From sequence record SRR2962707_2232: 20,000 bases of DNA. One strand, given 5' to 3'. Made by a program: the position numbers and the translations under genes. The notes under the pieces were generated by a model. The model saw only the letters and a program-made list of their open reading frames with translations, was not told the origin of the DNA and did no database searches. Shown in pieces: positions 1,621-18,290 of the stretch. The first letter of the stretch is position 1. Every line of letters begins with the position of its first letter.

Positions 1621-1623
1621 GAG

Positions 1624-1650
1624 TATCCATTCTAATAATTAGTACGGATA
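1624..1650. promoter_or_regulatory. 27-bp dyad in the divergent promoter region; candidate LysR-1 operator
   Basis: TATCCATTCTAAT-A-ATTAGTACGGATA: 11 of 13 arm positions are complementary. It begins 4 bp upstream of the LysR-1 start codon. Confidence 0.55.
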
Positions 1651-1726
1651 GTTGTCGATAATGTCATGGATTGCAATGCAAAAAGAGTGAAGGATCAAAT
1701 CAAGAGAAAAGCAAACAGAGCAAAAA

Positions 1727-2284: not shown

Positions 2285-2290
2285 ACTAAT

Positions 2291-3286: not shown

Positions 3287-3289
3287 CCG

Positions 3290-3775
3290 ATGTGGCTCGA
3301 CCGCTCATTGACTTCACTTCTTGCGCGTGCCGATTTCGGCGCGCGCATGATGGTCATCACATTTGCCGCGGCAATGGTTGTCGTGGTCTCATCCCAAGTC
3401 TTCATGCGCTATGTGCTCAATGGATCATTTGATTGGGCTGATGAAGTGAGCCGCCTAGCATTTGTTTGGACGATCTTCCTTGCAATACCGCTTGGCATTC
3501 GCGACGGGACCCATGTTGGTATTGACCTATTCGTCCAGCGGGTGCCCGAAAACCTGCGTTCGCCAATAGCGCGATTGATGAATCTGCTGGCTGCGGCAAT
3601 GATATTGGTTGTCTTCTGGACCTGTTTAACGGTCGCTATAGCAACATGGTCCGAGCGTTTGGGTTCGATTAACATAACTTCAAGCGTTTTCTTCTTTCCG
3701 CTGATAATCGGCTCATTACATTCGGCACTTCACCTAATTCAACTTGGCCTATTTCCGTCAGGACAAAGCAAATGA
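3290..3775 (+). CDS. dctQ: TRAP transporter small permease, system 1
   Basis: 161 aa with about 4 TM segments. DctQ motifs QVFMRY, W..EVSR...VW..FL, HVGID. Confidence 0.92.
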   Translation: MWLDRSLTSLLARADFGARMMVITFAAAMVVVVSSQVFMRYVLNGSFDWADEVSRLAFVWTIFLAIPLGIRDGTHVGIDLFVQRVPENLRSPIARLMNLLAAAMILVVFWTCLTVAIATWSERLGSINITSSVFFFPLIIGSLHSALHLIQLGLFPSGQSK

Positions 3776-5052
3776 GCCTCCTTGTTATTCTAATTTTTTT
3801 GGTGCTTGCGTTTTTGGGTATGCCTTTGGCCTTTTCATTGGGCGTGTCCGCAGTTGCGGGACTTTTGTTCGCCGGTTTTGATCTGAATGTGATGGCCCCG
3901 CGCTTATTAAATGCGGTTAATTCGTTCCCACTTATGTCAATTCCGCTTTTCATGATTGCGGGTGAGTTGATGTTGAAAGGCGGAATAATGGACCGCATAA
4001 TCGACTTCGCAAACGCTTTTATTGGCCGGGTTAGAGGTGGGTTGGCACAAGTCACGATTATTGCTGGCGCAGGGCTTGCTTCAGTATCGGGCGCAGCGGT
4101 GGCTGATGCTTCTGCCTTGTCCTCCACGCTGGTTCCATCTCTTCGCAAGCAATATGGCCTTGGGTTTTCTACCGGCATTGTGGCCGCGGCCGCTAATCTT
4201 GGACCGATTATTCCGCCGTCGGGCGCGATGATTGTCTACGCATTTATGGCGGGATCCACTGTTTCAGTTGGTGGGCTGTTTATGTCCGGCGTTATTCCAG
4301 GCCTGATCCTGTTTTTAACCTTTATGGCGCTTTGCTGGTTCATCGCTTGGAAGCGTGATTACCCGCTCGCCGGTGAGCCGATTTCAATCTCAAATATTTT
4401 GCGCGAAACTAAACGAAGCCTCGTTGTTTTCATGATGCCGGTGATCGTTATTGGGGGCATTGTAGCTGGTGTTTTTACACCAACTGAAGGGGCTGCAGTG
4501 GGCGTATGCTACGCGCTTTTTCTTGGTTTCTTCGTTACAAAGAAGCTTAAAGTTAAGGACCTACCGCATGTTCTTCTAGACGCGGCAAAGACATCTGCTC
4601 TGGTCGGCGCAATGATCGCGTTTGCCTCTACAATCACATTCCTTTTTACAATCGACCTTTTGCCCATGAAGTTGGCAGGTCTCATGCAAGGTTTGACCAC
4701 AAGCCCATTTCTATTTTTGTGCTTAGTTGCTGTCATGCTTTTGGTGGTTGGAATGTTCTTGGAATCCAACGCTGCCTACATCATGCTTGTCCCGCTTTTC
4801 CATCCAATCGCGGTCCAATTTGGCATTGATCCGCTTCATTTCGGTTTCCTATTTGTCCTTAACCTTGTCATAGGCATGCTTACGCCGCCTGTTGGTGTGG
4901 TGCTATTTGTTGTCTACGGCATAACGGGCGTGAAAATGGGTGAACTGGTGCGAGAAAGCTGGCCATTTATCGCAGCGATGTATGCATTGCTGATTTTATG
5001 TATGGTCTTTCCTAGCATTGTCACGTGGCTTCCAAGCCAGATGGGTTACTGA
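3772..5052 (+). CDS. dctM: TRAP transporter large permease, system 1
   Basis: 426 aa, very hydrophobic. Motifs IPLF, RGGLA, SGAAVAD, IIPPS, FTPTEGA, DPLHFG, TPPVG. ATGA overlap with dctQ. Confidence 0.95.
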   Translation: MSLLVILIFLVLAFLGMPLAFSLGVSAVAGLLFAGFDLNVMAPRLLNAVNSFPLMSIPLFMIAGELMLKGGIMDRIIDFANAFIGRVRGGLAQVTIIAGAGLASVSGAAVADASALSSTLVPSLRKQYGLGFSTGIVAAAANLGPIIPPSGAMIVYAFMAGSTVSVGGLFMSGVIPGLILFLTFMALCWFIAWKRDYPLAGEPISISNILRETKRSLVVFMMPVIVIGGIVAGVFTPTEGAAVGVCYALFLGFFVTKKLKVKDLPHVLLDAAKTSALVGAMIAFASTITFLFTIDLLPMKLAGLMQGLTTSPFLFLCLVAVMLLVVGMFLESNAAYIMLVPLFHPIAVQFGIDPLHFGFLFVLNLVIGMLTPPVGVVLFVVYGITGVKMGELVRESWPFIAAMYALLILCMVFPSIVTWLPSQMGY

Positions 5053-5795
5053 TGCGCCTTTTACTCCTCAACCCGAACACCACAGAAGCGCTAACGCATC
5101 GGCTTCAAAATTCGGCAGTGCGCGTGCTTCCCAAGGACGTCGAGGTTATTCCTGTCACAAGCGTCAAAGGGTTCCCCTATATCTCTTCGCGCGCAGAAGC
5201 CCAGATTGCAAGCGCGGAAGTCTTATCCATTTTTGCTGAGCGGCTAGAAGATTTTGATGCTGCTGTGATTGCAGCCTTTGGCGATCCGGGCCTAAGCGCT
5301 GCGCGCGAGCTGTTTAATAAACCGATAACTGGCATGTCGGAAGCGTCAATGGTGACGGCGCTTTCGCTTGGCGAGAAGTTTGCCTTTGTAACTTTTTCGC
5401 CCAGTCTTTCAGCGTGGTATGAAGATCAGGTGCGCAGATCTAGTCTGGAAGCTCGTTTTGCGGGAACCTTTACCCCTGAAACAAAATTTGCGTCAATTAC
5501 CGCTGTCGCGGAGGATTTGCGATTACCTTTGATTGAAACATGCAAACGTGCATCCAATGCTGCGGATGTTATAATTCTTGCTGGTGCGCCAATTGCTGGC
5601 TTGGCAGACGAGATTGCGGACGAAGTTCCGGCAATTCTCATCGATCCTATTCAGGCAGCCGCTATACAAGCCTATGCACTTCAACGGCTTCGGCCATCAG
5701 GCGCAAGCGTTGGGAGTTTTGCTCGGCCACTTAAGAAAGATAGTATGGGTCTGCCAAAGCCACTGTCCAATTGGATTGCTCATCGGCAGGACTGA
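5052..5795 (+). CDS. Asp/Glu/hydantoin racemase-family protein (allantoin racemase-like fold) lacking both canonical catalytic Cys
   Basis: Start reassigned to the ATG at 5052 (TGATG overlap with the dctM stop). It begins MRLLLLNPNTT, the typical family N-terminus, and has IAAFGDPGL.AARE, GMSEA and ILAGAPIAG. Confidence 0.85.
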   Translation: MRLLLLNPNTTEALTHRLQNSAVRVLPKDVEVIPVTSVKGFPYISSRAEAQIASAEVLSIFAERLEDFDAAVIAAFGDPGLSAARELFNKPITGMSEASMVTALSLGEKFAFVTFSPSLSAWYEDQVRRSSLEARFAGTFTPETKFASITAVAEDLRLPLIETCKRASNAADVIILAGAPIAGLADEIADEVPAILIDPIQAAAIQAYALQRLRPSGASVGSFARPLKKDSMGLPKPLSNWIAHRQD

Positions 5796-5928: not shown

Positions 5929-6834
5929 ATGAACCAAAAGCAACTGACGGCCTTTTATATGGTTATGCGGCATGGCTCGATAACCGAGGCTTCTCGCGCA
6001 TTATCGGTGTCCCAGCCTGCTGTTAGCCGCCTGATTTCGGATCTAGAGGCCAGTATCGGTTTTGAGCTTTTGTTGCGAACCGGCGGTCGATCTGTGCCCA
6101 CGCCTGAGGCGCATGAACTGTATCAGGAGGTGGAGCGGATGTTCTACAGCCTCGATAGGCTCAAAGTTGCCGCCGATGAAATTCGCACGCTCAAACGCGC
6201 GGTCTTCCGCGTTGCTTCCATGCCCATGGTCAGTTTTGAAATTTTGCCTTTGGCGCTGCGCCACATGGTGGAGCAATATGGCGGTATCGACATTTCTCAC
6301 GATGTGCACACATCGCGCCGCATCGTTGATCTTTTAGCTTCCCGCCAGATTGACCTTGGCATCGCCCAGACCGATCCTGGGCGCCAAGATGTCGAGGTGC
6401 TGGCGTCGTTTCGTACCCACTGCGTCTGCGTTATGGCGCCTGACCATCCCTTCGCGGGTAAGGAGATCATCAAGCTAAAGGATTTAGCGGATGAAGCGAT
6501 TATCGCGCTCAATTTTCGTACGCTGACACATAATTACATGATGCGTTGCTTCGCAGAGGCAGGCATTAACCCACGTATCGTCGCCGAAACGCAACCGAGT
6601 TACTCTGCGTGTAGTTTGGCGGCACTGGGTGTTGGCATCGCGATTGTCGATCCCATTACGCCCGACGTATTCGCATCGAGATTAAGCGTGGTCCCATTTG
6701 AAGCGGTCATCCCGTTTGACTATCAAATCCTCAAGCCTGCGGGTGTTCCAATGTCTCTCGCAGTTGAGCGCTTTTTCGATGCTTTGCTTGAAATTATCAA
6801 ATCGCGCCCTCATTATGGGGAACTTAGGACATAA
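5929..6834 (+). CDS. LysR-family transcriptional regulator (LysR-2)
   Basis: 301 aa. HTH GSITEASRALSVSQPAVSRLISDLE followed by an LTTR substrate-binding domain. Directly upstream of, and co-oriented with, operon B. Confidence 0.95.
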   Translation: MNQKQLTAFYMVMRHGSITEASRALSVSQPAVSRLISDLEASIGFELLLRTGGRSVPTPEAHELYQEVERMFYSLDRLKVAADEIRTLKRAVFRVASMPMVSFEILPLALRHMVEQYGGIDISHDVHTSRRIVDLLASRQIDLGIAQTDPGRQDVEVLASFRTHCVCVMAPDHPFAGKEIIKLKDLADEAIIALNFRTLTHNYMMRCFAEAGINPRIVAETQPSYSACSLAALGVGIAIVDPITPDVFASRLSVVPFEAVIPFDYQILKPAGVPMSLAVERFFDALLEIIKSRPHYGELRT

Positions 6835-6846
6835 GTTTTTTTCATG
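6830..6846. promoter_or_regulatory. Candidate LTTR recognition box (T-N11-A) for the operon B promoter
   Basis: CATAAGTTTTTTTCATG contains T6832-N11-A6844 with a CAT…ATG dyad and a T-rich core. It is followed by an AT-rich stretch and lies about 105 bp upstream of the dctP2 start. Confidence 0.5.
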
Positions 6847-6950
6847 AGGTCAGCATTTAATTGTATTTGATTTAATGTTCCCCTCGGCGAATAGTCACAT
6901 CCAGAAGAGCTTAATTTGTCCATACCATCACACAACGATAGGGAAAATTC

Positions 6951-7946
6951 ATGAACATTTCACGCCGCACATTGCTCGCACTCGCAGCAAGCGTCACGCC
7001 TTTAGCCATCACAAGTTCTGCTTTCGCTGCAGACTATACATTGCGCATTCATACGCTCGTAAAATCGCCGCATCCATACAACGATATGGCCGCTGCCATC
7101 AAAGAAGAAGTTGAAGCTAAAACGGATGGTCGTGTGGAAGTGACAATTTTCGACAGTGGCCAGCTTGGACAAGATCCTGCGGTTATCGGTGAGATGGCTT
7201 TTGGTACGATCGACATGATGATTTCGAGTACATCGAACGCAGTTCAGCAAATTCCGGAATTTGGTATTTTCACAATGCCATATCTCTTTGCAGGTATGGA
7301 TGAAGAGCTTGCACTTGTTGGTCCAGGCACGCCGGTTCAAGCGCATTTTGAAAAAGTTTACGCAGATCGCGGCGTTGGCATGAAATTGTTGGCGCTTGGT
7401 GGTTCTGGTACGCGCAATATGTCGACGACTAAAGTCGTTGTAAAAGGTCCAGAAGATCTTGCTGGCATTAAAATGCGTACGCCGCCATCACCAATGGATT
7501 CAGAGACTTGGTCAGCGTTCGGCATGTTGCCGGTGACGGTTGCATGGGGCGAACTTTATGCTGCGATGCAAACCGGCGTAGCAGAAGCGATGGAAAGCTC
7601 TTTGCCAGGTTATAATGGCTCGAAACTTTATGAAGTTGCGCCAAACCTAACATTGACCGAACATACAATTCAGGCAAACCACATCTCTATGTCTGAAGTG
7701 TCTTGGAATAAACTGCCAGAAGATATCCAAGCGATTGTTCAGGAAGCTGCGAATTCAGCCAATATTCTGGGTGTGGAAAAAGCCAAAGCCTATGATGCAG
7801 CTTTGGTTGAAACTTTGGCGAACGAGCACGGCGTAACCGTTACTTACCCAGATAAAGCCGCCTTTATGAAGGTCGTTGCACCACTACAGGCGAAACTGGC
7901 CAATGATCTTGACCTCGTCGAAGAGTACGAGCTTCTCAAGCAATAA
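6951..7946 (+). CDS. dctP: TRAP transporter substrate-binding protein (DctP family), system 2, with twin-arginine-like signal
   Basis: AGGGA RBS. N-terminus MNISRRTLL…SAFA|AD. Motifs SGQLG, GIKMR (conserved Arg), WGELYAAMQTGV. Confidence 0.93.
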   Translation: MNISRRTLLALAASVTPLAITSSAFAADYTLRIHTLVKSPHPYNDMAAAIKEEVEAKTDGRVEVTIFDSGQLGQDPAVIGEMAFGTIDMMISSTSNAVQQIPEFGIFTMPYLFAGMDEELALVGPGTPVQAHFEKVYADRGVGMKLLALGGSGTRNMSTTKVVVKGPEDLAGIKMRTPPSPMDSETWSAFGMLPVTVAWGELYAAMQTGVAEAMESSLPGYNGSKLYEVAPNLTLTEHTIQANHISMSEVSWNKLPEDIQAIVQEAANSANILGVEKAKAYDAALVETLANEHGVTVTYPDKAAFMKVVAPLQAKLANDLDLVEEYELLKQ

Positions 7947-7968
7947 GCTAGAACTGGCGCTAAATCGA

Positions 7969-8007
7969 AAGTAGGGCCATGGGCCGTTGTGCCCGTGGCT
8001 CCCACTT
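7969..8007 (+). other. Intercistronic stem-loop after dctP2 (likely mRNA stabiliser or partial terminator)
   Basis: GCCATGGGC-(CGTTGT)-GCCCGTGGC at 7976-7999 forms a 9-bp stem with one G-U pair, extendable by AAGT/ACTT. There is no immediate U-tract. Confidence 0.6.
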
Positions 8008-8035
8008 GAAAGTATCCTCTTTTGAAAGGTCTCTC

Positions 8036-8554
8036 ATGCTGAATCGTTTTTGCGACAGAGTGAACGCGCTGGTTGAGGGTGCATCGTGGATTGCTTTCGC
8101 GCTTTTAATCGGGACAGTTGCCATGCAGATTCTAGCACGCAATTTGTTCAATGTTCCGATGATTTGGACGGGTGATGTGGCGTTGCTTCTTTTCACTTGG
8201 TTGATCTTCATTGGTGCGGCTTCAGGACTGCGCACAGGTGGGCATTACGTCGTCAATATTCTACCAACCCATCGCCCGCGTGTCGCTCTTTTCGTTGAAA
8301 TCTTATCCATTGTTGCTGGTATTGGCGTCGTATGGATGCTTGGCATTAATGGATTTGAGCTGGCACAGATGCGGGCCAGCGGTGAAATCCAATCTTTGGG
8401 TCTGTCGCGGTTTTGGATGTACTTAGCATTGCCTGTCTCGGGTTGGATTATGGCGCTATATCTCTTGGAGATGACCGTATCTTTGGTTCGAGATCCCTTT
8501 CAACATACGAACGATGCGCAAGCTGCCATCCAAGACCGAGGCAATGAAATATGA
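8036..8554 (+). CDS. dctQ: TRAP transporter small permease, system 2
   Basis: Start reassigned to ATG 8036 (GAAAGG RBS upstream; the ORF-track start at 7979 lies inside the hairpin). Motifs QILARN, WT.DVA...FTW.IFIGA and about 4 TMs. Confidence 0.9.
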   Translation: MLNRFCDRVNALVEGASWIAFALLIGTVAMQILARNLFNVPMIWTGDVALLLFTWLIFIGAASGLRTGGHYVVNILPTHRPRVALFVEILSIVAGIGVVWMLGINGFELAQMRASGEIQSLGLSRFWMYLALPVSGWIMALYLLEMTVSLVRDPFQHTNDAQAAIQDRGNEI

Positions 8555-9849
8555 ACCCGCTCGTCGTCCTTCTTCTCGTTTTCTTTGTGCTCATTGCGCT
8601 GCGGGTCAATATCGGATTTGCGCTCATTCTATCATCAGCAGCTGTGATGTTGCTGGAGGGGTTGCCGCTGATATCTGTAGTCAACCAAATGTATGCGGGT
8701 ATCGATAGCTTTACGCTTTTAGCTGTCCCATTCTTCATGTTGCTGGGACGCATCCTAAATGCAGGCTCAATCACCAACCGGCTCCTTGAAGTTGCGGACA
8801 CAACCGTTGGTCATGTGCGCGGCGGGCTTGGACATGTGAATGTTTTCGTTTCGATGATTTTTGCGTCACTCTCAGGCTCTGCTGCTGCTGATACCGCTTC
8901 TGTTGGCTCGATCCTCATTCCTGCAATGAAAAAAGCAGGCTATCCAGCGCCGTTTGCGGCTGCGCTGACAGCGGCCTCTTCAACACTGGGCGTTATCATT
9001 CCGCCTTCAATTATCCTCATCGTCTATGGCGCATTTGGTAATGTGTCCATTGGCGCGCTTTTCGTGGGCGGTATCGTTCCAGGTATTTTGATTGCGCTCT
9101 TCATGATGGCCTACACCTATGTGCTTGCGGTCTATTATGATTATCCGGCAAACCCGTTTCCGGGCGTTCGCGCCGCAGGCCGAGTGCTAAAGCGCGGTGC
9201 ATTGCCTCTTTTGATCCCTGTGATCGTGCTTGGCGGTATTGTCGGCGGTATATTTACGCCAACTGAAGGTGCGATTGCCGCGGTTCTTTGGGCACTGTTC
9301 CTGTCTTTGTTTGTCTACCGTGATATCAAAATGCGGCAGCTTCCTAAACTGTTGAAAGACGCGGTTGTCGATTTTGCAATCCCTATGTTTACGGTGGCAG
9401 GTGCTGGTATTTTCGGCTGGTTGATTGCCTATCTTGGTGCGTCTCAGATTGTCGTCGATTTTATCCTTGGCGTCACACAAACGCCGTTTCTCATTATGCT
9501 CATGTTGATAGGATTTCTGCTCCTTGTCGGCATGGTTTTAAATCCGATTTCCGCCACACTTATCTTTTTGCCAATCATTCAAGCGCTGGGAAATACTGCC
9601 GATATTAACCCGGTTCATATGGGTGTTTTGTCAACAATTGTTTTGTCGGTTGGCTTGGTTACGCCGCCTTATGGCATCTGTCTTCTGATTGCCTCGCAAA
9701 TTGCGGGTGCAAGCCTTGGCCGCTGCATGCTCGCTGTTGCACCGATCTGTCTTTTGACGGTTTTTGTCGCAATTCTTTCGCTTTGGTTCCCTGACATTGT
9801 GCTGGGTTTGCCAAAACTACTTGTTCCTGAATTTTTCTCTGGGAGTTAA
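8551..9849 (+). CDS. dctM: TRAP transporter large permease, system 2
   Basis: 432 aa. Motifs AVPFF, RGGLG, SGSAAAD, IIPPS, FTPTEGA, NPVHMG, TPPYG. ATGA overlap with dctQ. Confidence 0.95.
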   Translation: MNPLVVLLLVFFVLIALRVNIGFALILSSAAVMLLEGLPLISVVNQMYAGIDSFTLLAVPFFMLLGRILNAGSITNRLLEVADTTVGHVRGGLGHVNVFVSMIFASLSGSAAADTASVGSILIPAMKKAGYPAPFAAALTAASSTLGVIIPPSIILIVYGAFGNVSIGALFVGGIVPGILIALFMMAYTYVLAVYYDYPANPFPGVRAAGRVLKRGALPLLIPVIVLGGIVGGIFTPTEGAIAAVLWALFLSLFVYRDIKMRQLPKLLKDAVVDFAIPMFTVAGAGIFGWLIAYLGASQIVVDFILGVTQTPFLIMLMLIGFLLLVGMVLNPISATLIFLPIIQALGNTADINPVHMGVLSTIVLSVGLVTPPYGICLLIASQIAGASLGRCMLAVAPICLLTVFVAILSLWFPDIVLGLPKLLVPEFFSGS

Positions 9850-9853
9850 TTAC

Positions 9854-10789
9854 ATGTCTCATATTAAACCTAAGGGCTCATTTGTTGCTCTTGTCACACC
9901 AATGAACGCAGATGGCTCAATCGATTATGAGGGCTTTCGCACGCTGCTGAATTGGCATGCGGCCAATGGCACTGAAGCCGTTCTCATTATGGGTTCAACA
10001 GGCGAAGTCTCGATGCTTAGCGCTGAAGAGCGTAAGCAGATCATCACGCAGACTGCGAAAATGAAACCGGGCAATATGCTGATGTATTATGGCGTGACCG
10101 GTAACAATACCGAAACGACCATTGACTATGTGCGCTATGCAAAAGATGCGGGCGCTGATGGTGCTATCATGGCTGCGCCTGCCTATATCTGCGCAGACAA
10201 TGACGCGATTACAGACTACGCGATGGAAGTGCTCGATAGCTGTGATTTGGCGATGGGTTTTTATAATAACCCGCCACGCGTGAAGACGGACTTGCACTGG
10301 GACAATCTTCTCAAACTGGCCAAGCATGACAATATGGTTGTGCTTAAAGAAAGCACCACGCGCGTTGGCCAAGTTGCGCAGGTTTGTGCGGCAAAACCGG
10401 ATATGTCTATCATGTGCTGCTGCTCCCCTAATCTTGGGCTTGTTGTCCCAACGATGGCGCTTGGCGGACATGGCACGGCGAATATGACGGGCAACATTAT
10501 CCCTCAAGAAATGGCCGTTATTTCAAAACCATGGGAAACAGGTGAGGATGCTTTCGCGCACCGTGCCGCGTGGTTGGAGAATTTGCCGATGCTGCATTTT
10601 GCCTATGCCGCTGTTAATCCGGTTTCGATTAAGACATTGATGCGGGCCGTTGGACTGCCTGCTGGTCCGCTGCGCAAACCGCTGCAGCCTGCAAGCGCTG
10701 AAGTCATGAAAAAAGGTTTTGCGGCTTTTGATAAGCTAGGCCTTGCTGAAAAATACGGTCTTTCTGCACCGATGATGGCAGCAGAATAA
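9854..10789 (+). CDS. Dihydrodipicolinate synthase/N-acetylneuraminate lyase-family enzyme (probably a catabolic aldolase/deaminase, not housekeeping DapA)
   Basis: Start reassigned to ATG 9854 (GGGAG RBS). Motifs ALVTPM, GSTGE, YNNPPR and Schiff-base Lys in VLKES (K165). MCCCS replaces the usual SGDD. Confidence 0.88.
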   Translation: MSHIKPKGSFVALVTPMNADGSIDYEGFRTLLNWHAANGTEAVLIMGSTGEVSMLSAEERKQIITQTAKMKPGNMLMYYGVTGNNTETTIDYVRYAKDAGADGAIMAAPAYICADNDAITDYAMEVLDSCDLAMGFYNNPPRVKTDLHWDNLLKLAKHDNMVVLKESTTRVGQVAQVCAAKPDMSIMCCCSPNLGLVVPTMALGGHGTANMTGNIIPQEMAVISKPWETGEDAFAHRAAWLENLPMLHFAYAAVNPVSIKTLMRAVGLPAGPLRKPLQPASAEVMKKGFAAFDKLGLAEKYGLSAPMMAAE

Positions 10790-10792
10790 TTT

Positions 10793-13045
10793 ATGACCCA
10801 TAAGCCGCTCGATGATATTGAGGGCAATTCATTGCCCGTCAACCTTAGCCACTGGGGCGCATTTCGCGCCCGTGTTGAGGATGGGCGGCTTGTGGAAGCA
10901 ATCCCTATTGGCGGCGCTGATCCTGAAATGATTGGCGCTTGGCCGGAGCTTATTCATTCGCCCAGACGCATTGACCAACCCTATGTACGCCGTGGCTGGC
11001 TTGAAAATGGGCCAGCACTATCAGCCAGCCGTGGGCGTGATGAATTTGTCCCTGTTTCTTGGGATAAAGCGCTTGAGCTTGTCGCTAGTGAAATTGCGCG
11101 TATGCACGCCGAGCATGGCCCAACCTCTATTCTTGGCGGTTCCTATGGCTGGTCCAGTGCAGGACGCCTGCATCATGCACGCAGTCAAGTGCGCCGGTTT
11201 CTTGCTGCTGCGGGCGGCTTTACTGATCAAATTTCAAACTATTCTTGGGGAGCAGCGGCAGCAATTTTGCCTCACGTACTTGGGTCTACTGCGGCTGTTG
11301 CCTATGCTGCAACCAGTTGGACGAGTATCGCAGGGCACAGCGATACCGTTGTTGCTTTTGGTGGTCTCAACCCAAAAAATTGGCGTGTGACATCCGGCGG
11401 TGCCGTTGAGCATCCGATGCCAGATATGGTGGCCAAGGCAAAAAAACGCGGGTGTAAATTTGTTGTTTTGTCGCCTTTAGCTTCAGATGTTCCCGATGGG
11501 TTGGAAGCTGATCTTATTCAGCCACGACCAGGTTCTGACACGGCCATTATGCTCGCACTTGCTCACGAAGCACTCATTTCTGGACGCGCAGATCGTGCCT
11601 TTTTGGATAAATATACGGTCGGCGCTGACCGGTTGATCGCTTATCTTACAGGCGAGGCTGATGGCATACCAAAGACCCTTCAATGGGCCGCGCTGCAAGC
11701 TGATCTTAATGTTGCAGAATTAGAAAGACTTTGGACTAAAATCCGTGATGGGCGCGTGATGCTAACGGCATCATGGTCGTTGCAGCGGGCAGAAAATGGT
11801 GAGCATAGCTATTGGGCATTGATCGCACTTGCGGCAATGCTGGGTCAAATCGGCTTGCCCGGCGGCGGCTTCACATTCGGCTATGGCTCAATGGGGTCCG
11901 TAGGCGCGGATGCGCGGCGCGGCTATGTGCCGAACTTCCCATCACTTCGAAATGCAGGGACGGCGATCCCAGTGGCGGCTGTGGCCGATGCACTGCTATC
12001 GCCCGGTGAACCGCTTGCCTTTAACGGTAAGACAATGACCCTGCCTGATATTCGTATGATCTACTGGGCTGGCGGTAATCCGTTTCATCATGCGCAAGAC
12101 CTTGGTAAACTAGAAAAGGGTTGGGCCCGCGCTGAAACAGTTGTTGTTCATGAACCGTGGTGGACACCAACTGCTGAGCGTGCGGATATTGTATTGCCCG
12201 CCACGACCTCTGCCGAGCGCAATGATATTGGTGGCACGTCGCGTGACCCTTATGTTGTGTTCATGGAAAAGCTTGTTGAGCCGCAAGGGCAGGCCCGCAA
12301 TGACCGTGATATTTTCTCTGACTTGGCGAAGCGTCTTGGATGTCGCGAAGTCTTCGATGTCGGTCTTAGTGAAGAACAATGGTTACAGCAGTTGTGGGCC
12401 AGCACTGTTGAAAAGGGTCTGAGCGAGGGTATCTCGGTGCCAGACTTTAAGCAGTTTCGAGAGATGAAGCTCTGGCAGGTTCCCGCGCCTGAACGGCCCG
12501 AAGTGATGTTTGATACATTCCGTGCTGATCCGGAAAAGGCGCCGCTGCCGACGCCATCGGGCAAAGTAGAATTATTTTCTGAGGCGATTGCTGGATTTGG
12601 TTATGCCGACGAGTTGGGCCACCCGATGTTCCGTGCGCCTATTGAATGGTTGGGCAATGCCGAAGCAGGCGAATTCCATCTTGTGACGAACCAACCGGCT
12701 AAACAGCTGCATGGCCAGTTGTGGCAAACATCATCGGGCATGAGCGGTGCGCCCGCGCCGGTGCGTATCCATCCTGATGATGCGGCTGCATTTGGCATAG
12801 CCGACGGACAGATCGTGCGGGTTTATAATGAACGCGGTGCCTGCAAGGCGACGGCGCAAGTGGATTCCGGTGTGCGCCGCTCTGTGCTGGTGATGCCAAC
12901 AGGAGCTTGGTTTGAGCCTGAAAAGGACACTGGATTTGAACAAAACGGCAATCCCAATGTTCTGACGGCAGACCGCCGCAGCTCCCAGCTTGGTCAAGCC
13001 TGCGCTGCATTGTCTGCGCTCGTTCGGATAACGCCAAATCTTTAA
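10793..13045 (+). CDS. Cytoplasmic molybdopterin (bis-MGD) oxidoreductase, BisC/DMSO-TMAO reductase type
   Basis: 750 aa. Motifs SHWG, RI..PYVR.GWL, GSYGWSSAG, NYSWGAA (Ser ligand position), GQIGLPGGG, WAGGNPFHH, ADIVLPATT..ERND, LPTPSGKVEL and a C-terminal MGD-binding domain (IHP.DA…N.RG…NPNVLT). No Tat signal and no Fe-S Cys motif. Confidence 0.92.
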   Translation: MTHKPLDDIEGNSLPVNLSHWGAFRARVEDGRLVEAIPIGGADPEMIGAWPELIHSPRRIDQPYVRRGWLENGPALSASRGRDEFVPVSWDKALELVASEIARMHAEHGPTSILGGSYGWSSAGRLHHARSQVRRFLAAAGGFTDQISNYSWGAAAAILPHVLGSTAAVAYAATSWTSIAGHSDTVVAFGGLNPKNWRVTSGGAVEHPMPDMVAKAKKRGCKFVVLSPLASDVPDGLEADLIQPRPGSDTAIMLALAHEALISGRADRAFLDKYTVGADRLIAYLTGEADGIPKTLQWAALQADLNVAELERLWTKIRDGRVMLTASWSLQRAENGEHSYWALIALAAMLGQIGLPGGGFTFGYGSMGSVGADARRGYVPNFPSLRNAGTAIPVAAVADALLSPGEPLAFNGKTMTLPDIRMIYWAGGNPFHHAQDLGKLEKGWARAETVVVHEPWWTPTAERADIVLPATTSAERNDIGGTSRDPYVVFMEKLVEPQGQARNDRDIFSDLAKRLGCREVFDVGLSEEQWLQQLWASTVEKGLSEGISVPDFKQFREMKLWQVPAPERPEVMFDTFRADPEKAPLPTPSGKVELFSEAIAGFGYADELGHPMFRAPIEWLGNAEAGEFHLVTNQPAKQLHGQLWQTSSGMSGAPAPVRIHPDDAAAFGIADGQIVRVYNERGACKATAQVDSGVRRSVLVMPTGAWFEPEKDTGFEQNGNPNVLTADRRSSQLGQACAALSALVRITPNL

Positions 13046-13059
13046 ATAGGAGAGACCAG

Positions 13060-13839
13060 ATGGATCTGGGAATTCAGGGGCGTCATGCCTTGTTGACAGG
13101 AGCGAGCAAAGGCATGGGCCGCGCTTGCGCGATGGCTGTCGCTGCTGAAGGCGCGCAGGTTACCATTTGTGCGCGCGGCGAAGAACGCTTGATGCAAACG
13201 GCTGAAGAGATCCGCCGCGCAACGGATGCAACCGTTAACATCGTTGTTGCGGATGTAACGACAGATGCAGGCCGCGCCAAAATCCTAGATGCCTGCCCAA
13301 ACCCTGATATTTTGCTCAACAATGCAGGCGGTTCGTTGCCCGGTGATTTTCGCAATTGGGGCCGCGATGAATGGATCGCGGGTATAGACCTCATGATGTT
13401 GCCGCCGATCTTGATGATGCGCGATGTTGTCGACGGCATGATGGATCGCGGTTGGGGCCGGATTGTCAATATTGTCTCGCGCAGCGTGAAAATTCCGCAG
13501 CTTGAACTCGGTCTGTCGAATGGCGCACGCTCCGGCCTTGTTGGTTTTACCGCAGGGCTTGCGCGCCAGACCATTTCCAAGGGCGTGACGATCAATAATC
13601 TACTGCCCGGTATCACCGATAGCGATGGCCAGCGTGAACATATTGAAGGCATGTTGACGAAAGATGGGCCGAGTTACGATGAGGTTTTTGCTGCGCGGGC
13701 TGCAGCAAATCCTGCGGGGCGCTATGGACGTCCAGAAGAAATTGGTGCTTATTTCGCGTTTCTTTGTTCAAATCATGCGGGCTTTGTGACCGCGCAAAAC
13801 CTTTTGGTGGATGGCGGCAGCTATCCTGGAACTTATTGA
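13060..13839 (+). CDS. Short-chain dehydrogenase/reductase, atypical (BKR-like) subgroup
   Basis: AGGAG RBS. Motifs MDLGI.G..AL.TGASKGMG, NNAGG, GRIVNI, P.GRYG.PEE, VDGG. The active-site motif reads S-N-G-A-R instead of YxxxK. Confidence 0.92.
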   Translation: MDLGIQGRHALLTGASKGMGRACAMAVAAEGAQVTICARGEERLMQTAEEIRRATDATVNIVVADVTTDAGRAKILDACPNPDILLNNAGGSLPGDFRNWGRDEWIAGIDLMMLPPILMMRDVVDGMMDRGWGRIVNIVSRSVKIPQLELGLSNGARSGLVGFTAGLARQTISKGVTINNLLPGITDSDGQREHIEGMLTKDGPSYDEVFAARAAANPAGRYGRPEEIGAYFAFLCSNHAGFVTAQNLLVDGGSYPGTY

Positions 13840-13846
13840 GGACCAA

Positions 13847-15109
13847 ATGCATATTGTCGTCATAGGCGCAGGTGTTATCGGAATCACAACGGCATGGTAT
13901 TTGTCTCAAGATGGTCACGAGGTGACCGTGGTTGAGGCGCGTGAAGGCGTTGCGCTTGAGACATCTTTTGGCAATGCTGGCGGCGTCTGCCCGGGTTTTG
14001 CCGGTCCTTGGGCGGCACCTGGCATGCCGTTTAAAGCGTTCAAATGGATGTTTAGTCCTGCTGCACCGCTTAAAATACGACCACAGTTTTCGATGGCGCA
14101 ATGGACGTGGTTGATGCGGTTTGTTGGCAATTGCACACCGTCTCGCTATGCTGCTAACAAGACGCGTATGCAAAAAGTTGCGCATTATTCAAAGGCGCAA
14201 CTAAAAGCACTGCGTGCGCAAACCGGCATTGAATATGATCATGGCACGGGCGGCATTCTACAGATTTTTGAGACTGAGGATGAAGTTGAAGGCGGACGCA
14301 GAAATGCAGCGGTTTTGGCCTCGCTTGGTATCCCCCATCGGTTGTTATCTGGCTCTGAGGTCCGTGATGTTGAGGCAGGATTGGCGCGGTCCAATATTGC
14401 CCTGTCGGGCGCGCTGCAGCTGACGGATGATGAAACGGGTGATTGTCACCTTTTTTGCCAAGAGCTTGAGAAACTGTGCCGTGAAGCGGGCGTAACCTTT
14501 TGCTTTAATAACCGTGTCACCGGCCTTCAAACGAAAGGCAACCGCGTCACGCACCTGACGACGGCGCAAAGGCAAAGCAATGATCCATCAGGCGCAGTGA
14601 ACACCAGCCAAATTGAAGCCGATGCCATTGTCCTTGCGACCGGTCCACAAATGGATTTAATCCGCGCGCTTGGGCTAAAAGTGCCGGTCTACCCTGTTAA
14701 AGGCTATTCCTTCACCGCTGAGATCACCAATGATGCCGCTGCGCCGCGCTCTTCTGTGATGGATGAACATTCGAAAGTCATGATCACACGGCTTGGTAAT
14801 CGCATTCGCGCGGCCGGCGTTGCCGAGTTGGCAGGCTTTGATAATTCCATGCCAGAAGCTGTTCTAAGCTCTCTTCGTGCGCGGGTCCAAGCGCTGTTTC
14901 CAGGGGCTGCAGATTATGACAATGCTCAGTGGTGGCATGGATTTCGCCCCATGACGGCTGATGGCCCCAGCCAAGTAAAGCGCAGCCGCTATGACAATTT
15001 ATTTCTGAACATTGGCCATGGCTCCAGTGGTTGGACACAGGCATGCGGCACGGGCAAAATGACGGCCGATTTGATCGCAAATCGACCCTTTGATGCGGCT
15101 CTCTCGTGA
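13847..15109 (+). CDS. dadA: D-amino acid dehydrogenase-like FAD oxidoreductase (DadA paralog)
   Basis: Start reassigned to ATG 13847 (GAGG RBS). Motifs GAGVIG, ETSFGNAG, PWAAPG, DETGDC..F, YPVKGYS, ITRLG.RIR.AG.AE, G.RPMT.DGP, GHG..GWT.ACG. Confidence 0.88.
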   Translation: MHIVVIGAGVIGITTAWYLSQDGHEVTVVEAREGVALETSFGNAGGVCPGFAGPWAAPGMPFKAFKWMFSPAAPLKIRPQFSMAQWTWLMRFVGNCTPSRYAANKTRMQKVAHYSKAQLKALRAQTGIEYDHGTGGILQIFETEDEVEGGRRNAAVLASLGIPHRLLSGSEVRDVEAGLARSNIALSGALQLTDDETGDCHLFCQELEKLCREAGVTFCFNNRVTGLQTKGNRVTHLTTAQRQSNDPSGAVNTSQIEADAIVLATGPQMDLIRALGLKVPVYPVKGYSFTAEITNDAAAPRSSVMDEHSKVMITRLGNRIRAAGVAELAGFDNSMPEAVLSSLRARVQALFPGAADYDNAQWWHGFRPMTADGPSQVKRSRYDNLFLNIGHGSSGWTQACGTGKMTADLIANRPFDAALS

Positions 15110-15115
15110 AAGGCA

Positions 15116-15580
15116 TTAAATGGCTAGTGGGCGATTTTCGGCAATTGTCTCCATAGCGAAATAGGACGTGACCGCTTCCAGTTCGACCTTTTCGATCAGG
15201 CGTTGATAAACTGCGTCATAGCTTGCCATGTCTTTGGTTACGACCTTCAACATGTAGTCGTAGTCTCCGGCGATACGAAATACGTCTGAAACTTCCGGCG
15301 AGTTTAGCACGGCTTGGCGAAACTCTTTGAGCCACTCAGTCGAGTGTTTGCGTGTGCGCACCATTACGAAAACCACCAAGTCCAAGCCCAGTTTCTTGCG
15401 GTCAATTTTCGCAACGGAGCCGTTGACGACGCCTTGCTTGGTAAGGTTTTGCAACCGGCGCCAGCACGCGTTTTGGGACACGCCGACAAGTTCTGCCAAA
15501 TCTCTTTGCGAGATTGACGAATCGAGCTGTAGGGCACGAAGAATTTTTCGGTCTATTTGATCTAATTTTTGGCTATTCAT
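15116..15580 (-). CDS. Lrp/AsnC-family transcriptional regulator (DecR/YbaO-like)
   Basis: Likely start at 15580 (MNSQKLDQIDRKILRALQ). HTH LAELVG.S..ACWRR and RAM domain H...WL..F…FRIAGDYDYMLKVV..DM..YD.VY..LI. Confidence 0.92.
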   Translation of the reverse strand: MNSQKLDQIDRKILRALQLDSSISQRDLAELVGVSQNACWRRLQNLTKQGVVNGSVAKIDRKKLGLDLVVFVMVRTRKHSTEWLKEFRQAVLNSPEVSDVFRIAGDYDYMLKVVTKDMASYDAVYQRLIEKVELEAVTSYFAMETIAENRPLAI

Positions 15581-15676
15581 TCGATCATAATATGCAATTT
15601 TCATGTATTTGGCTACAAATTTGATAGAAATAATCGCATTTCATTATGTCATTCTATCGAAAATTGGAGAATGCAT

Positions 15677-17122
15677 ATGAGCCTAGACAAATTTCGCCGT
15701 TCAATCGAAAGAATTGATGCTGTTGAAGCCTTGCGCGATGGTGTCATTGGCGATGGTGTTTTGATCCCAGGTCTGTTTGGTGATGTGCCGCTTGTCTATG
15801 CTGATTATGTCGCGTCCGGCCGCTCTCTAGAACAGGTGGAAGATTATATCCGCCAAGATGTTTTGCCCTATTACGCGAACAGTCATACGGAGGCGTCATT
15901 TTGTGGCTCGTTCATGACGCGGTTACGTAGCGAGGCGAGGGCGCAGATCGCAACGCTTACGGGCGCTAACGACGAACATGCCGTTATCTTTGCAGGATCT
16001 GGCGCTACGGCAGGTCTCAATAAGCTTGTAAAATTACTCGGCGTTGATGTGGTTAAAAACGCAGTTGTTTTCATTGGCCCCTATGAGCACCACTCGAATA
16101 TCCTGCCATGGCGCGAAAGTAATGCAACGGTTGTCGAAGTGCCTGAAGCAGCGAACGGCGGTCCCGATCTGGATATTTTGCAAGCCAAATTAATTGAATA
16201 TGCGGGCGCTGATTTGAAAATCGGCAGCTTTTCTGCAGCCTCCAATGTGACGGGCATTGTTACCGATCCGGTTCCTGTGACACAGCTTTTGAAAGCGCAT
16301 GGCGCATTATCAATTTGGGACTATGCGGGCGGTGGTCCTTACCTCGATATTGATGTTTCCCCCGCTGCAGACGCCAAAATTGATGCGATCGTTGTGTCTC
16401 CCCACAAATTCGTTGGTGGCCCTGGTGCCAGCGGTGTTTTAATCATTCGCAAAGATGCTGTGACAACGCAGGTTCCGACATCGCCGGGCGGTGGAACAGT
16501 AACATTTGTCTCTTCATGGTTTCATGAATACAGCCAAAATATATCATCACGCGAAGAAGCTGGAACGCCCAATGTCATTGGTGATATTCGCGCGGCGCTG
16601 GCCTTTATTGTTAAAGATGTCGTCTCCCAGTCTTTTATTGTTGCCCGCGAACATGAGGTCAATAGGAAGGTTCTTGACGCGTGGAAAAGCCATCCGCAAC
16701 TGATGCTGTTAAACGGTGATCATGTAAACCGTCTTCCGATATTTTCATTTCTAATTAAACGCAAAGATGGCACGCGGTTTCACCACCAGCTCTTTACGCG
16801 CATGTTAAGCGATGTGTATGGCATTCAGGTGCGTGGCGGCTGCGCCTGCGCGGGCCCTTATGCGCATGCGCTTTTAAAAATTGATAAAGCAGCTTCTGCA
16901 GGTCTTCTTGCCGAATTGCAAAACGGCAATGAATTAAACAAACCTGGCTGGGTAAGGCTCAATTTCAGCTATCTGATGAGCGATGAGCAAGTTCAATTTA
17001 TCATCGATAGTGTCTTGGACCTTTTGGGCCGATTGGACGAAATCGAGGCCCATTACACGTCCGATCCTCGCACAGCGCGTTTTTCCATCAATCCCTCGTC
17101 GGATGCACGATTAATCGCCTGA
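15677..17122 (+). CDS. Class V PLP-dependent enzyme, cysteine desulfurase/lyase-like
   Basis: Start reassigned to ATG 15677 (GGAG RBS 7 nt upstream). Motifs YADYVASG, YANSH, EHHSNILPW, SNVTG, WDYA, SPHK (PLP Lys), EAGTP, RGGCACAGPY (compare SufS RxGHHCA), GWVRLNF. Confidence 0.88.
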   Translation: MSLDKFRRSIERIDAVEALRDGVIGDGVLIPGLFGDVPLVYADYVASGRSLEQVEDYIRQDVLPYYANSHTEASFCGSFMTRLRSEARAQIATLTGANDEHAVIFAGSGATAGLNKLVKLLGVDVVKNAVVFIGPYEHHSNILPWRESNATVVEVPEAANGGPDLDILQAKLIEYAGADLKIGSFSAASNVTGIVTDPVPVTQLLKAHGALSIWDYAGGGPYLDIDVSPAADAKIDAIVVSPHKFVGGPGASGVLIIRKDAVTTQVPTSPGGGTVTFVSSWFHEYSQNISSREEAGTPNVIGDIRAALAFIVKDVVSQSFIVAREHEVNRKVLDAWKSHPQLMLLNGDHVNRLPIFSFLIKRKDGTRFHHQLFTRMLSDVYGIQVRGGCACAGPYAHALLKIDKAASAGLLAELQNGNELNKPGWVRLNFSYLMSDEQVQFIIDSVLDLLGRLDEIEAHYTSDPRTARFSINPSSDARLIA

Positions 17123-17136
17123 ACCAGTTTACGAGT

Positions 17137-17808
17137 TTAATGGGCATGGTCATGCCCATGACTTTCTAGAGCGCCCAAATCCTGGCCCGACCGATTCTCT
17201 TGCCATGCCTGCATAAGAATGAGCTGTGCGGAGCGCAGGAACAAACCAGCCATTATGATTGCTACAATGAGATCAGGCCATGCGGTAGCCGTGAACCAAA
17301 CAGCGACACTTGCGACCATGACTGCCACATTGCCGATGGCGTCGTTACGAGAGCATAACCAGACCGAGCGCACATTCGCATCGCCATCTTTGTAGCGCAT
17401 TAAAAGAAACACACTCGCCAGATTGGCTGTAAGTGCCAGAACACCAATGCCGCCCATGATTTGAGCTTCTGGGACACCTAGTATGAAGAATTGGTAGATT
17501 GTAGAACCAAAGACCCAAAGTCCCATGAGGAGAAGGCTTAGACCTTTAAAAATCGCGGCAGTTGAACGCACTTTGAGGCTCATGCCAATAACTGCAAGGC
17601 TCAAGCCGTAAGTCAGAGAATCGCCGAGAAAGTCTAAGGCATCAGCCTGCAGCGCCTGTGAGCCAGCCAGTCTCCCCGCCAGCATCTCGACAATGAACAT
17701 CGCGGCATTGATGACTATGACCGTCCATAAAATGCGTTTGTAAGTTGGGTTAACGCCGTCAAATGTTGGATTACCCGAACATCCACAAGCTTCGTGTTTC
17801 TCACTCAT
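17137..17808 (-). CDS. Cation diffusion facilitator (CDF) metal efflux protein, short form without cytoplasmic C-terminal domain
   Basis: 223 aa with about 6 TMs. CDF signature S.ALQADALDFLGD and WLCSRND.IGN. N-terminal HEACGC and C-terminal HGHDHAH. Confidence 0.9.
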   Translation of the reverse strand: MSEKHEACGCSGNPTFDGVNPTYKRILWTVIVINAAMFIVEMLAGRLAGSQALQADALDFLGDSLTYGLSLAVIGMSLKVRSTAAIFKGLSLLLMGLWVFGSTIYQFFILGVPEAQIMGGIGVLALTANLASVFLLMRYKDGDANVRSVWLCSRNDAIGNVAVMVASVAVWFTATAWPDLIVAIIMAGLFLRSAQLILMQAWQENRSGQDLGALESHGHDHAH

Positions 17809-17837
17809 AACTGACCTTTCTAATTCTCTGTCAGGTC

Positions 17838-17868
17838 AATATAATCCCTCTAGTAACTATAGGTTCAA
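17838..17868 (-). promoter_or_regulatory. MerR-type promoter/operator for the CDF gene
   Basis: On the minus strand, -35 TTGAAC (17868-17863) and -10 TATATT (17843-17838) are separated by 19 bp. The dyad CCTCTAGT-A-ACTATAGG (17847-17863, 7/8 pairs) lies over the spacer. Confidence 0.85.
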
Positions 17869-17879
17869 GAGGTATTTTT

Positions 17880-18290
17880 ATGTTTTCGATAGGCCAGCTT
17901 TCCAAGCGCACTGGCGTGAAAATTCCCACTATTCGATATTACGAGCAGATGGGTTTAATTGATGCGCCAGAACGCTCTGAAGGCAATCAACGGCGCTACT
18001 CAGCAGATGGCTTAAACCGTCTTTCGTTTATTCGTCACTCGCGTGATCTTGGTTTTTCTATTGAAGATATCAAAGGGTTGCTCAGCCTGAGCCAGCATCC
18101 CGAAAAGCCATGCCATGATGCGCACGATATTGCTGTTCGCCACCTTAAAGACGTGCAGGATAGGATTGCCAAGCTTCGGCGGTTGGAGCGCGAGTTAAAA
18201 CGCATTTCCAAATGTGATGCAGATAGTGTGTCCGATTGTGCGGTTATTGAAACGCTTGCAGATCATAAATTATGCGAAACCGAACATTAG
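17880..18290 (+). CDS. MerR-family heavy-metal-responsive regulator (CadR/PbrR/ZntR-like)
   Basis: GAGG RBS. Motifs SIGQLS..TGV...TIRYYE..GL, GNQRRY, FIRHSRDLGF. Metal-site Cys in KPCHD and SKC……DCAVI. Confidence 0.93.
   Translation: MFSIGQLSKRTGVKIPTIRYYEQMGLIDAPERSEGNQRRYSADGLNRLSFIRHSRDLGFSIEDIKGLLSLSQHPEKPCHDAHDIAVRHLKDVQDRIAKLRRLERELKRISKCDADSVSDCAVIETLADHKLCETEH

Follow-up and report, generated by a model that had tools for sequence, protein, structure and literature searches.

Several described systems pair a Schiff-base enzyme of the DHDPS/NAL family with enzymes or importers that supply its substrate. In sialic acid operons, the SiaPQM importer of the TRAP type is encoded with the lyase NanA. 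In hydroxyproline catabolism, a D-hydroxyproline dehydrogenase works with a pyrroline-4-hydroxy-2-carboxylate deaminase of the same family. In DapA, Arg138 holds the carboxylate of aspartate semialdehyde; NanA-type enzymes are not known to have this arginine. Here we examine a locus that combines features of these systems with a molybdoenzyme resembling BisC. It lies in a stretch of 20,000 nucleotides from sequence record SRR2962707_2232 (hereafter the window). Eight genes encode a LysR-family regulator (LysR2), a TRAP importer (DctPQM), a DapA-like lyase, a BisC-like protein, an atypical short-chain dehydrogenase/reductase (SDR1) and a DadA-type dehydrogenase. We argue that this is a conserved and uncharacterised operon of a marine Roseobacter whose use is probably growth on an oxidised sulfur amino acid. 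All of its parts come from known families, and it is for their combination that we found no description. An earlier note on this DNA had likewise known of no characterised pathway with the full set, and our full-text literature search, judged by title and abstract and not extending to subscription journals, found no published account of the cluster.

The eight genes all lie on the + strand of a window whose G+C content is about 50%. A gap of 116 nt separates lysR from dctP and one of 32 nt separates dctP from dctQ; the remaining junctions are -4 nt (dctQ/dctM), +4 (dctM/lyase), +3 (lyase/bisC), +14 (bisC/SDR) and +7 (SDR/dadA). A check of open reading frames (ORFs) and junctions found the gene calls, shared orientation and spacing previously listed for dctQ to dadA all correct. 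The placement of the operon behind a LysR gene also holds: that gene (5929–6834) lies upstream of dctP, and a conserved motif occupies the intergenic region. Families were assigned to the window proteins with Pfam and NCBIfam at curated cut-offs, and genome-level paralogues were checked in three relatives, G001–G003.

What does the molybdoenzyme reduce? The gene at 10793–13045 encodes a predicted cytoplasmic S-/N-oxide reductase of the BisC/DorA type. PF18364, PF00384 and PF01568 each score above cut-off, giving the three-domain architecture of molybdopterin oxidoreductases, and the protein matches the Rhodobacter sphaeroides dimethyl sulfoxide (DMSO) reductase 1eu1 at 529 bits. On the bisC_fam model (TIGR00509) it reaches 811 bits, below the cut-off of 1017.55, and the cluster copies of its relatives score 782–806 bits. 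No twin-arginine motif is visible by eye at its N-terminus, and the alignment begins at residue 11 of mature DorA. Tyr118, Trp120 and Ser151 align without gaps with Y114, W116 and S147 of DorA, the serine being the molybdenum ligand, and the three are invariant in 21 of 21 lyase-linked copies. One study describes the tyrosine and tryptophan as essential for S-/N-oxide reduction and the tyrosine as absent from TorA (PMC8166771). It also describes a variable region, made up of Arg166 and His182 in MtsZ, to which the side chain of the substrate binds. Docking reported there forms a salt bridge between Arg166 and the carboxylate of methionine sulfoxide, at a site occupied by threonine in RcDorA and serine in EcBisC (PMC8166771).

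An ungapped 78-residue alignment with MtsZ (chain 7l5i) places Arg130 of the window protein at Arg166, Gln146 at His182 and Asn149 at Asp185. Arginine occupies the Arg166 site in all 21 lyase-linked copies and in 13 of 63 other BisC relatives; Gln146 and Asn149, too, are shared by all 21. The linked copies also form their own part of the family. On a FastTree phylogeny of 84 BisC relatives, 19 of 19 fall in one half of 39 rows; the other 45 rows, with the Cereibacter and Rhodobacter copies among them, contain none. The lyase-linkage label changes five times on this tree, against a shuffle mean of 17.3, and none of 500 shuffles gave so low a value. Eight relatives not linked to the lyase have heterogeneous neighbourhoods (BioY, a NapC-type cytochrome, amidases and others). 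In G001 and G002 the cluster gene is the only BisC-family gene of the genome. Taken together, this favours a reductase specialised for an anionic oxide, of which an amino-acid sulfoxide would be the simplest case, with N-oxides still allowed.

The lyase gene (9854–10789; PF00701) encodes a member of the DHDPS/NAL family that is not the housekeeping DapA. It scores 171.5 bits on the dapA equivalog model (TIGR00674; cut-off 206.15), and each of G001–G003 holds a separate true dapA at 318–338 bits. Alignments with solved structures nevertheless equate its Ser48, Thr49, Tyr111, Tyr137, Arg142 and Lys165 with T44, T45, Y107, Y133, R138 and K161 of DapA. The catalytic set is thus kept except for serine at Thr44 and alanine at Tyr106. 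Across 42 orthologues five of these six residues never vary, and Thr49 is present in 41. Among 13 DHDPS-family paralogues in G001 and G002, only the two true DapA proteins have the full set; the R138 position is arginine in these two and in two others, one of them close to DapA and the other poorly aligned. Because the lyase keeps the equivalent of Arg138, we infer, by an argument from shape, that its substrate would be a 2-oxo acid bearing an alanyl-type carboxylate at the far end. The DapA aldol adduct, the keto acids derived from diaminopimelate, and the keto acids of lanthionine, cystathionine and their sulfoxides all have this shape. The analogy with the hydroxyproline pathway drawn in the earlier note is therefore without sequence support: the lyase resembles DapA and not the deaminase, in a comparison made without a deaminase sequence.

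The next enzyme, SDR1 (13060–13839; adh_short), has the cofactor motif TGxxxGxG (T13-G-A-S-K-G-M-G20) and Ser140. In place of YxxxK it has N154-G-A-R157-S158, so that the catalytic tyrosine and lysine are gone, and the replacement is found in 17 of 17 cluster-linked copies. Three solved structures, 5vps, 5va8 and 5idx, match it at about 286 bits and are annotated only as short-chain dehydrogenase/reductase SDR; the printed alignments of 5vps and 5va8 show the same N-G-A-R-S motif. The lineage is widespread, with a match (E ≤ 1e-60) in 67 of 401 Pseudomonadota genomes, and its solved structures bear no functional name beyond SDR. Linkage to the lyase is confined to the nearest members: copies of at least 59% identity adjoin it, and those of 50–58% occur in unrelated contexts. 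In the 401-genome sample the lyase lies within the 1.5-kb flanks of only the two closest copies (89% and 68% identity), and the neighbours of 28 distant relatives at 50–58% identity show no common theme (EamA transporters, methyltransferases, CvpA and others). The DadA-type flavin adenine dinucleotide (FAD) D-amino-acid dehydrogenase (13847–15109) scores 497.6 bits on NF001933 (cut-off 383), and in G001–G003 the cluster DadA is the only match above that cut-off. The earlier note had held that lyase, SDR and DadA each deviate from their prototypes at motif positions. This stands for the SDR; for the lyase it comes down to positions 44 and 106; and for DadA, which passes its cut-off, we found no testable deviation.

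Is the gene set itself conserved? The closest locus, in Pacificibacter marinus DSM 25228, shares 73–93% protein identity across the cluster. Alloyangia pacifica DSM 26894 and Pigmentiphaga litoralis KCTC 22165 are likewise cultured carriers. A scan seeded with BisC, taking one genome per species, gave 80 loci. Six of these (L001–L005 and L070, from Roseobacteraceae or Paracoccaceae) have the eight genes in identical order, and 14 have a lyase orthologue of at least 59% identity. Three further genomes found by the lyase (L088, L089 and L091) show the full order too. The order LysR-DctPQM-lyase-BisC-SDR-DadA thus recurs in at least nine other Roseobacteraceae genomes, so the arrangement is not due to chance, and the synteny that the earlier note had asked to see checked is there. 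The lyase occurs in 7 of 401 genomes of G001's family (E ≤ 1e-80) and in 4 of 401 genomes sampled across the phylum (E ≤ 1e-90). The cluster is real and conserved, but uncommon.

Beyond the Roseobacter type the genes are rearranged and partly exchanged. In Alcaligenaceae and Pigmentiphaga the order is metC-lyase-SDR1-tctC-dadA, divergent from lrp-bisC. G692 has tctC-SDR1-lyase-bisC-racemase with lrp divergent; the racemase exceeds the amino-acid racemase cut-off (TIGR00035), and its best match, PRK10200 (the E. coli-type aspartate/glutamate racemase), falls below its own cut-off. A SAR324 genome (L016) and G250 (L092) have TRAP-lyase-SDR2-bisC, SDR2 being a classical SDR. Two alphaproteobacterial metagenome-assembled genomes (L007 and L019) have TRAP genes, bisC and GNAT-lyase. 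In G717 (L128), bisC is divergent from a peptide-type ATP-binding cassette (ABC) importer, an M20 amidohydrolase and the lyase. Three of the ten genomes found by the lyase lack BisC within 20 kb: G427 (L129), with lyase-TRAP-metC, and G338 (L090) and G068 (L093), where the lyase stands with a peptide-type ABC importer and TauE, accompanied in G338 by SDR1.

Some of these copies show further features. The BisC-like gene of G250 (L092, 11496–13976) is split into ORFs of 540 and 214 amino acids, with a DDE transposase fragment just downstream, and this copy of the cluster may be decaying. The lyase orthologue of G717 (L128, 9620–10534) has an in-frame TGA and is neighboured by an N-acetylmuramoyl-L-alanine amidase gene and an MltA gene. 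Downstream of the BisC-like gene in SAR324 (L016, 12578–20127) are genes for a 1075-residue Fer4/DmmA-like/Fer2 protein, a PNPOx-like protein, a xanthine-dehydrogenase-family molybdoenzyme and a GcvT-like protein, a context of the methylated-amine type; L007 and L019 likewise have PNPOx-like genes in the vicinity of the cluster. In E. coli K-12 (L144, 2979000–2980000), lysR is followed by ygeA, which encodes an amino-acid racemase of the Asp/Glu family. The ygeA racemase family replaces DadA in the G692 variant, which may be coincidence.

Metagenome loci separate what is constant from what varies. A lyase-seeded scan gave 80, of which 23 had at least 5 kb on both sides (near-duplicates kept); neighbours were counted within 7 kb and are partly annotated, an exact look-up giving names for 4 of 10. 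An SDR is present in 17 of the 23 (SDR1 in 14, the classical SDR2 in 3), a BisC-like gene in 11 and a DadA-like gene in 8; MetC occurs in seven, all of which also have BisC. The transporters are TctC (11 loci), a TRAP set (4) or an SBP_bac_5 importer (4). One locus, L150, consists of LysR-DctPQM-lyase-SDR1 with a lyase-SDR junction of 14 nt and, over 20 kb, has neither BisC nor DadA. What stays constant is a core of transporter, DapA-like lyase and SDR, which we read as ancestral. With BisC in 11 and DadA in 8 of the 23, the molybdoenzyme and DadA are add-on modules, as are the lyases that use pyridoxal phosphate (PLP), each acquired by certain lineages; the BisC gene of the window lies between those of the two core enzymes. 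The earlier note's treatment of the full combination as the unit of the pathway does not survive these counts: the lyase, SDR and transporter occur without BisC in 12 of 23 loci and without DadA in 15, and L150 lacks both.

The added modules and neighbours point towards amino acids and, in part, towards sulfur. In an Alcaligenaceae locus (L011), the PLP gene within the operon scores 501 bits as a cystathionine beta-lyase (cut-off 366), and that of G427 scores 389; MetC homologues are present in six of six Alcaligenaceae-type loci. In the window, the gene after the operon's convergent neighbour encodes a class-V PLP enzyme like SufS/CsdA (15677–17122, +, the ORF being open from 15569; PF00266). 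Such a SufS-like gene adjoins the cluster in six BisC-containing loci (the window, L005, L001, L089, L146 and L164), at two different positions. The protein scores 131 bits on the SufS subfamily, far below the cut-off, and its best solved-structure matches are cysteine desulfurases at about 90 bits; a protein atlas returned only generic class-V names. It is a candidate C-S lyase or desulfinase, accessory to the cluster. TauE stands beside the two ABC-type variants that lack BisC (L090 and L093), and L198 has a MetE-like gene close to its lyase and SDR. M20 and M81 peptidases in ABC-type variants suggest that in some lineages uptake is as a peptide or N-acyl conjugate. Together with the Lrp or LysR regulators and DadA or a racemase, they are evidence that the substrate is amino-acid-like.

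LysR2 (HTH_1 and LysR_substrate domains), which is co-directional with the operon, has NF008239/PRK11013 as its best NCBIfam match (194.8 bits, the next family scoring 103) and is 32% identical to E. coli K-12 LysR over 287 amino acids (E 7e-48). E. coli LysR is a sensor of diaminopimelate. The LysR gene is kept upstream of the transporter in Roseobacter loci. The lysR-dctP intergenic region (6835–6950) carries a motif, GCATGA ... TTGTATTTGA, that is conserved in an alignment with four usable orthologous regions and is likely a promoter or operator. A sigma-70-like match lies at 6788–6816, in a region where such matches occur at chance level. Consensus scans found promoter-like sites (15, with 11.7±3.0 expected) and terminator-like sites (22, with 15.7±4.5 expected) at chance level and so say nothing on co-transcription. 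An Rfam scan of the window and five related loci returned no riboswitch and only two tRNAs. An Lrp/AsnC gene (15116–15604, −), convergent with dadA and divergent from the class-V PLP gene, is retained after DadA in L005 and L001, and in the Alcaligenaceae and G692 variants the divergent regulator is an Lrp gene; throughout the variants the regulators are of LysR or Lrp type.

The importer is encoded as three consecutive subunits: the solute-binding protein DctP2 (6951–7946; PF03480, 207.8 bits), the small permease DctQ2 (7979–8554; PF04290) and the large permease DctM2 (8551–9849; PF06808, and TIGR00786 above cut-off at 370 bits). Among solved structures, those nearest to DctP2 are TRAP proteins that bind uronate or sialate, and they score only about 120 bits; its orthologues, 44–82% identical, stand beside the lyase in TRAP-type variants. 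DctP2 has an N-terminal SRRTLL signal. Its start (6951–7030; MNISRRTLLALAA...AFA) is twin-arginine-like, which suggests twin-arginine export of the binding protein.

How might these proteins work together? We read the operon as a system for inducible uptake and catabolism of an anionic amino-acid-like compound, extended in the window version to S-oxidised and D-configured forms; its substrate class is most likely a thioether amino-acid sulfoxide, a reading that we hold tentatively, with less than even confidence. Candidates would be methionine sulfoxide or the sulfoxide of a cysteine or homocysteine S-conjugate, possibly one like lanthionine or cystathionine, a type isosteric with diaminopimelate. 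The compound would enter through DctPQM. The molybdoenzyme would then strip the sulfoxide oxygen, Arg130 holding the substrate carboxylate, and DadA would oxidise the D alpha-carbon to a 2-oxo or imino acid, a role that an Asp/Glu-type racemase may take in one variant. Lys165 of the lyase would form a Schiff base with the 2-oxo acid while Arg142 bound the distal alanyl-type carboxylate, and cleavage or elimination at position 4 would yield pyruvate or a 2-oxo-enoate. The NADP-type atypical SDR would act as a redox enzyme on that product or on a cyclic ketimine, and a PLP C-S lyase, SufS-like in the window and MetC-type elsewhere, would free the sulfur. For the lyase and SDR steps the chemistry is purely inferential. 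Three features favour a carboxylate-bearing S-oxide: the retained serine, tyrosine and tryptophan, the arginine site conserved in all lyase-linked copies, and the PLP C-S lyases beside BisC-containing variants. The earlier note's proposal of an imported S-oxidised amino acid gains support to this extent and indirectly, through the three catalytic residues, the invariant Arg130 and the recurrence of MetC-type and SufS-like lyases.

Several observations weigh against this reading. The lyase occurs so often without BisC (in 12 of the 23 metagenome loci, which are not de-replicated, and in 3 of the 10 lyase-found genomes) that an S-oxide is not the core substrate. There is no direct sign of sulfur in that substrate, and C-S lyases accompany only a subset of loci. 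DorA-type enzymes with the tyrosine also reduce N-oxides, and the BisC-like protein falls short of its family cut-off. As the sole family copies in G001 and G002, the cluster BisC and DadA could serve general repair and D-alanine catabolism. The complete DapA catalytic set may mean plain hydroxytetrahydrodipicolinate (HTPA) synthase activity. An SDR that lacks the catalytic tyrosine and lysine may be no conventional oxidoreductase, and no checkable precedent supports the proposed cleavage chemistry.

One alternative, which we consider unlikely, is a substrate that holds no sulfur. On this view the core degrades or salvages a C7 diamino- or imino-dicarboxylate, such as diaminopimelate from cell-wall peptides, piperidine-2,6-dicarboxylate or a 4-hydroxylated relative, and the molybdoenzyme acts on an N-oxide or N-hydroxy form or is a passenger. 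The lyase, with its DapA set including the aspartate-semialdehyde arginine, and LysR2, nearest to the family of the E. coli lysA regulator, both fit such a substrate, as does the absence of BisC from about half of the loci. Peptide-type ABC importers and M20/M81 peptidases flank the lyase and SDR in L128 and L158, and cell-wall amidase and MltA genes adjoin the lyase in L128. In L093 the lyase stands beside a piperideine-6-carboxylate dehydrogenase gene and a saccharopine dehydrogenase-family gene, the latter assigned by Pfam with no NCBIfam match. Yet reversal of the DapA and DapB reactions would be thermodynamically unfavourable, by a general estimate, and such compounds are not known to have a natural N-oxide. 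The MetC-type and SufS-like lyases, TauE and the MtsZ-like arginine would be left unexplained.

A second alternative, to which we give a similarly low probability, is that the operon is a mosaic: the TRAP importer, lyase and SDR act on one compound, and BisC (for general repair of free methionine sulfoxide or biotin sulfoxide) and DadA (a general dehydrogenase) are merely parked among them. In its favour, two sources describe E. coli BisC as reducing free Met-S-sulfoxide (PMC7402097, PMC8166771). The sole BisC-family copy in G001 and G002, the sole DadA above cut-off in G001–G003, and an operon that has neither gene (L150) also speak for it. Parking is harder to reconcile with a BisC-lyase linkage that recurs in at least four gene orders, with three transporter types, and in Alpha- and Betaproteobacteria and SAR324. 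Nor does it sit well with lyase-linked BisC copies that occupy their own part of the tree and keep Arg130, Gln146 and Asn149, or with the insertion of the window gene between lyase and SDR, 3 nt from the one and 14 nt from the other.

DadA-family enzymes oxidise cyclic imino acids, and in hydroxyproline catabolism the DHDPS-family deaminase opens a cyclic imine. This background and carriers mostly labelled marine Alphaproteobacteria (for example Pseudooceanicola, Tropicimonas, Roseibium and Breoghania) would suit chondrine, the algal 1,4-thiazane-3-carboxylate S-oxide, or a related cyclic sulfoxide, deoxygenated, converted by DadA or the SDR to a cyclic ketimine and opened by the lyase through transimination; but we think this very improbable, since related clusters occur in Pigmentiphaga, other Alcaligenaceae and compost-labelled contigs, the thiazane sulfur sits directly on C3 and so would offer no leaving group for the family's elimination of a 4-substituent, Arg142 suggests a second carboxylate that chondrine lacks, and a literature search judged by title and abstract found no chondrine catabolism in bacteria.

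The thioether-sulfoxide reading also has a bolder form, which we regard as a long shot. The DapA-like lyase and Tyr-less SDR may constitute an undescribed catabolic module for thioether diamino-diacids that mimic diaminopimelate (the lanthionine/cystathionine type), with sulfur or a sulfinyl group replacing the C4-hydroxyl of the DapA aldol adduct; the BisC-type enzyme would feed sulfoxides into it, its first dedicated nutritional role. If a thioether sulfoxide is indeed the substrate, marine and soil Proteobacteria have a dedicated route for using as food the oxidised sulfur amino acids that arise wherever oxygen and light act on organic sulfur. For BisC-type molybdoenzymes this would mean a part in catabolism as well as in repair, and functions would be given to a DapA look-alike and to a widespread SDR lineage, with three solved structures, that lacks the catalytic tyrosine and lysine. 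The natural variants with and without the molybdoenzyme, DadA and the C-S lyase offer a ready comparison for each step.

The rest of the window holds other genes. Upstream is operon A (682–5795). Its divergent LysR gene (682–1620, −) is followed by a gene for a protein like OHCU decarboxylase (TIGR03164, exceeding the cut-off), a further set of DctPQM genes and a racemase gene of the Asp/Glu/hydantoin family, whose overlap with dctM is 28 nt. Its make-up suggests a system for importing a ureide or a product of purine breakdown, for example allantoin. We reject a link between it and the operon described here, operon B: its genes appear in none of the 80 BisC-seeded and six further lyase-seeded loci, and its racemase has no similarity to that of G692. 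Downstream of the class-V PLP gene lies a metal-efflux pair (17137–18290), a cation-diffusion-facilitator gene with a divergent gene for a metal sensor of the MerR family; a GGDEF diguanylate cyclase gene comes next (18337–19485).

How, then, does the locus compare with the known systems? As in sialic acid operons, a TRAP importer adjoins a DHDPS/NAL-family lyase, and SiaP is among the nearest solved relatives of DctP2. Unlike NanA, however, the window lyase scores only 69–90 bits on NanA models, against 171 on dapA, and no sugar kinase or epimerase genes accompany the operon. As in hydroxyproline catabolism, a flavoenzyme of the D-amino-acid oxidase (DAO) family that makes a 2-imino or 2-oxo acid is paired with a DHDPS-family Schiff-base enzyme. 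The differences are again plain: the operon has no epimerase or ketoglutarate semialdehyde dehydrogenase (Pfam and NCBIfam detect neither a proline-racemase-family gene, the family of hydroxyproline epimerase, nor an aldehyde dehydrogenase gene in 5929–17122), the lyase is DapA-like with an arginine for a distal carboxylate, and a molybdoenzyme and an SDR are present.

The resemblance to DapA and DapB goes further. The lyase has equivalents of Lys161, Tyr133, Tyr107, Thr45 and Arg138, with serine at position 44, and its gene precedes one for an oxidoreductase of the nicotinamide-cofactor type, just as dapB is the functional partner of dapA. But the lyase falls below the dapA cut-off, the relatives have a separate dapA, and the partner is an atypical SDR rather than DapB. 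The position of these genes behind substrate importers and regulators of LysR or Lrp type is in keeping with catabolism or salvage. Finally, the BisC-like protein shares with E. coli BisC and Haemophilus influenzae MtsZ the fold, the domains, the molybdenum-ligand serine and the catalytic tyrosine and tryptophan. Like BisC it appears to have no export signal (its sequence was inspected by eye, with no predictor), and like MtsZ it has arginine at the site for the carboxylate of methionine sulfoxide. It differs in scoring below the bisC_fam cut-off, in having glutamine for His182 of MtsZ, and in having asparagine for Asp185, which is conserved in Dor and Tor enzymes. Its gene, moreover, is part of a catabolic operon that includes an importer and is not a stand-alone repair gene.

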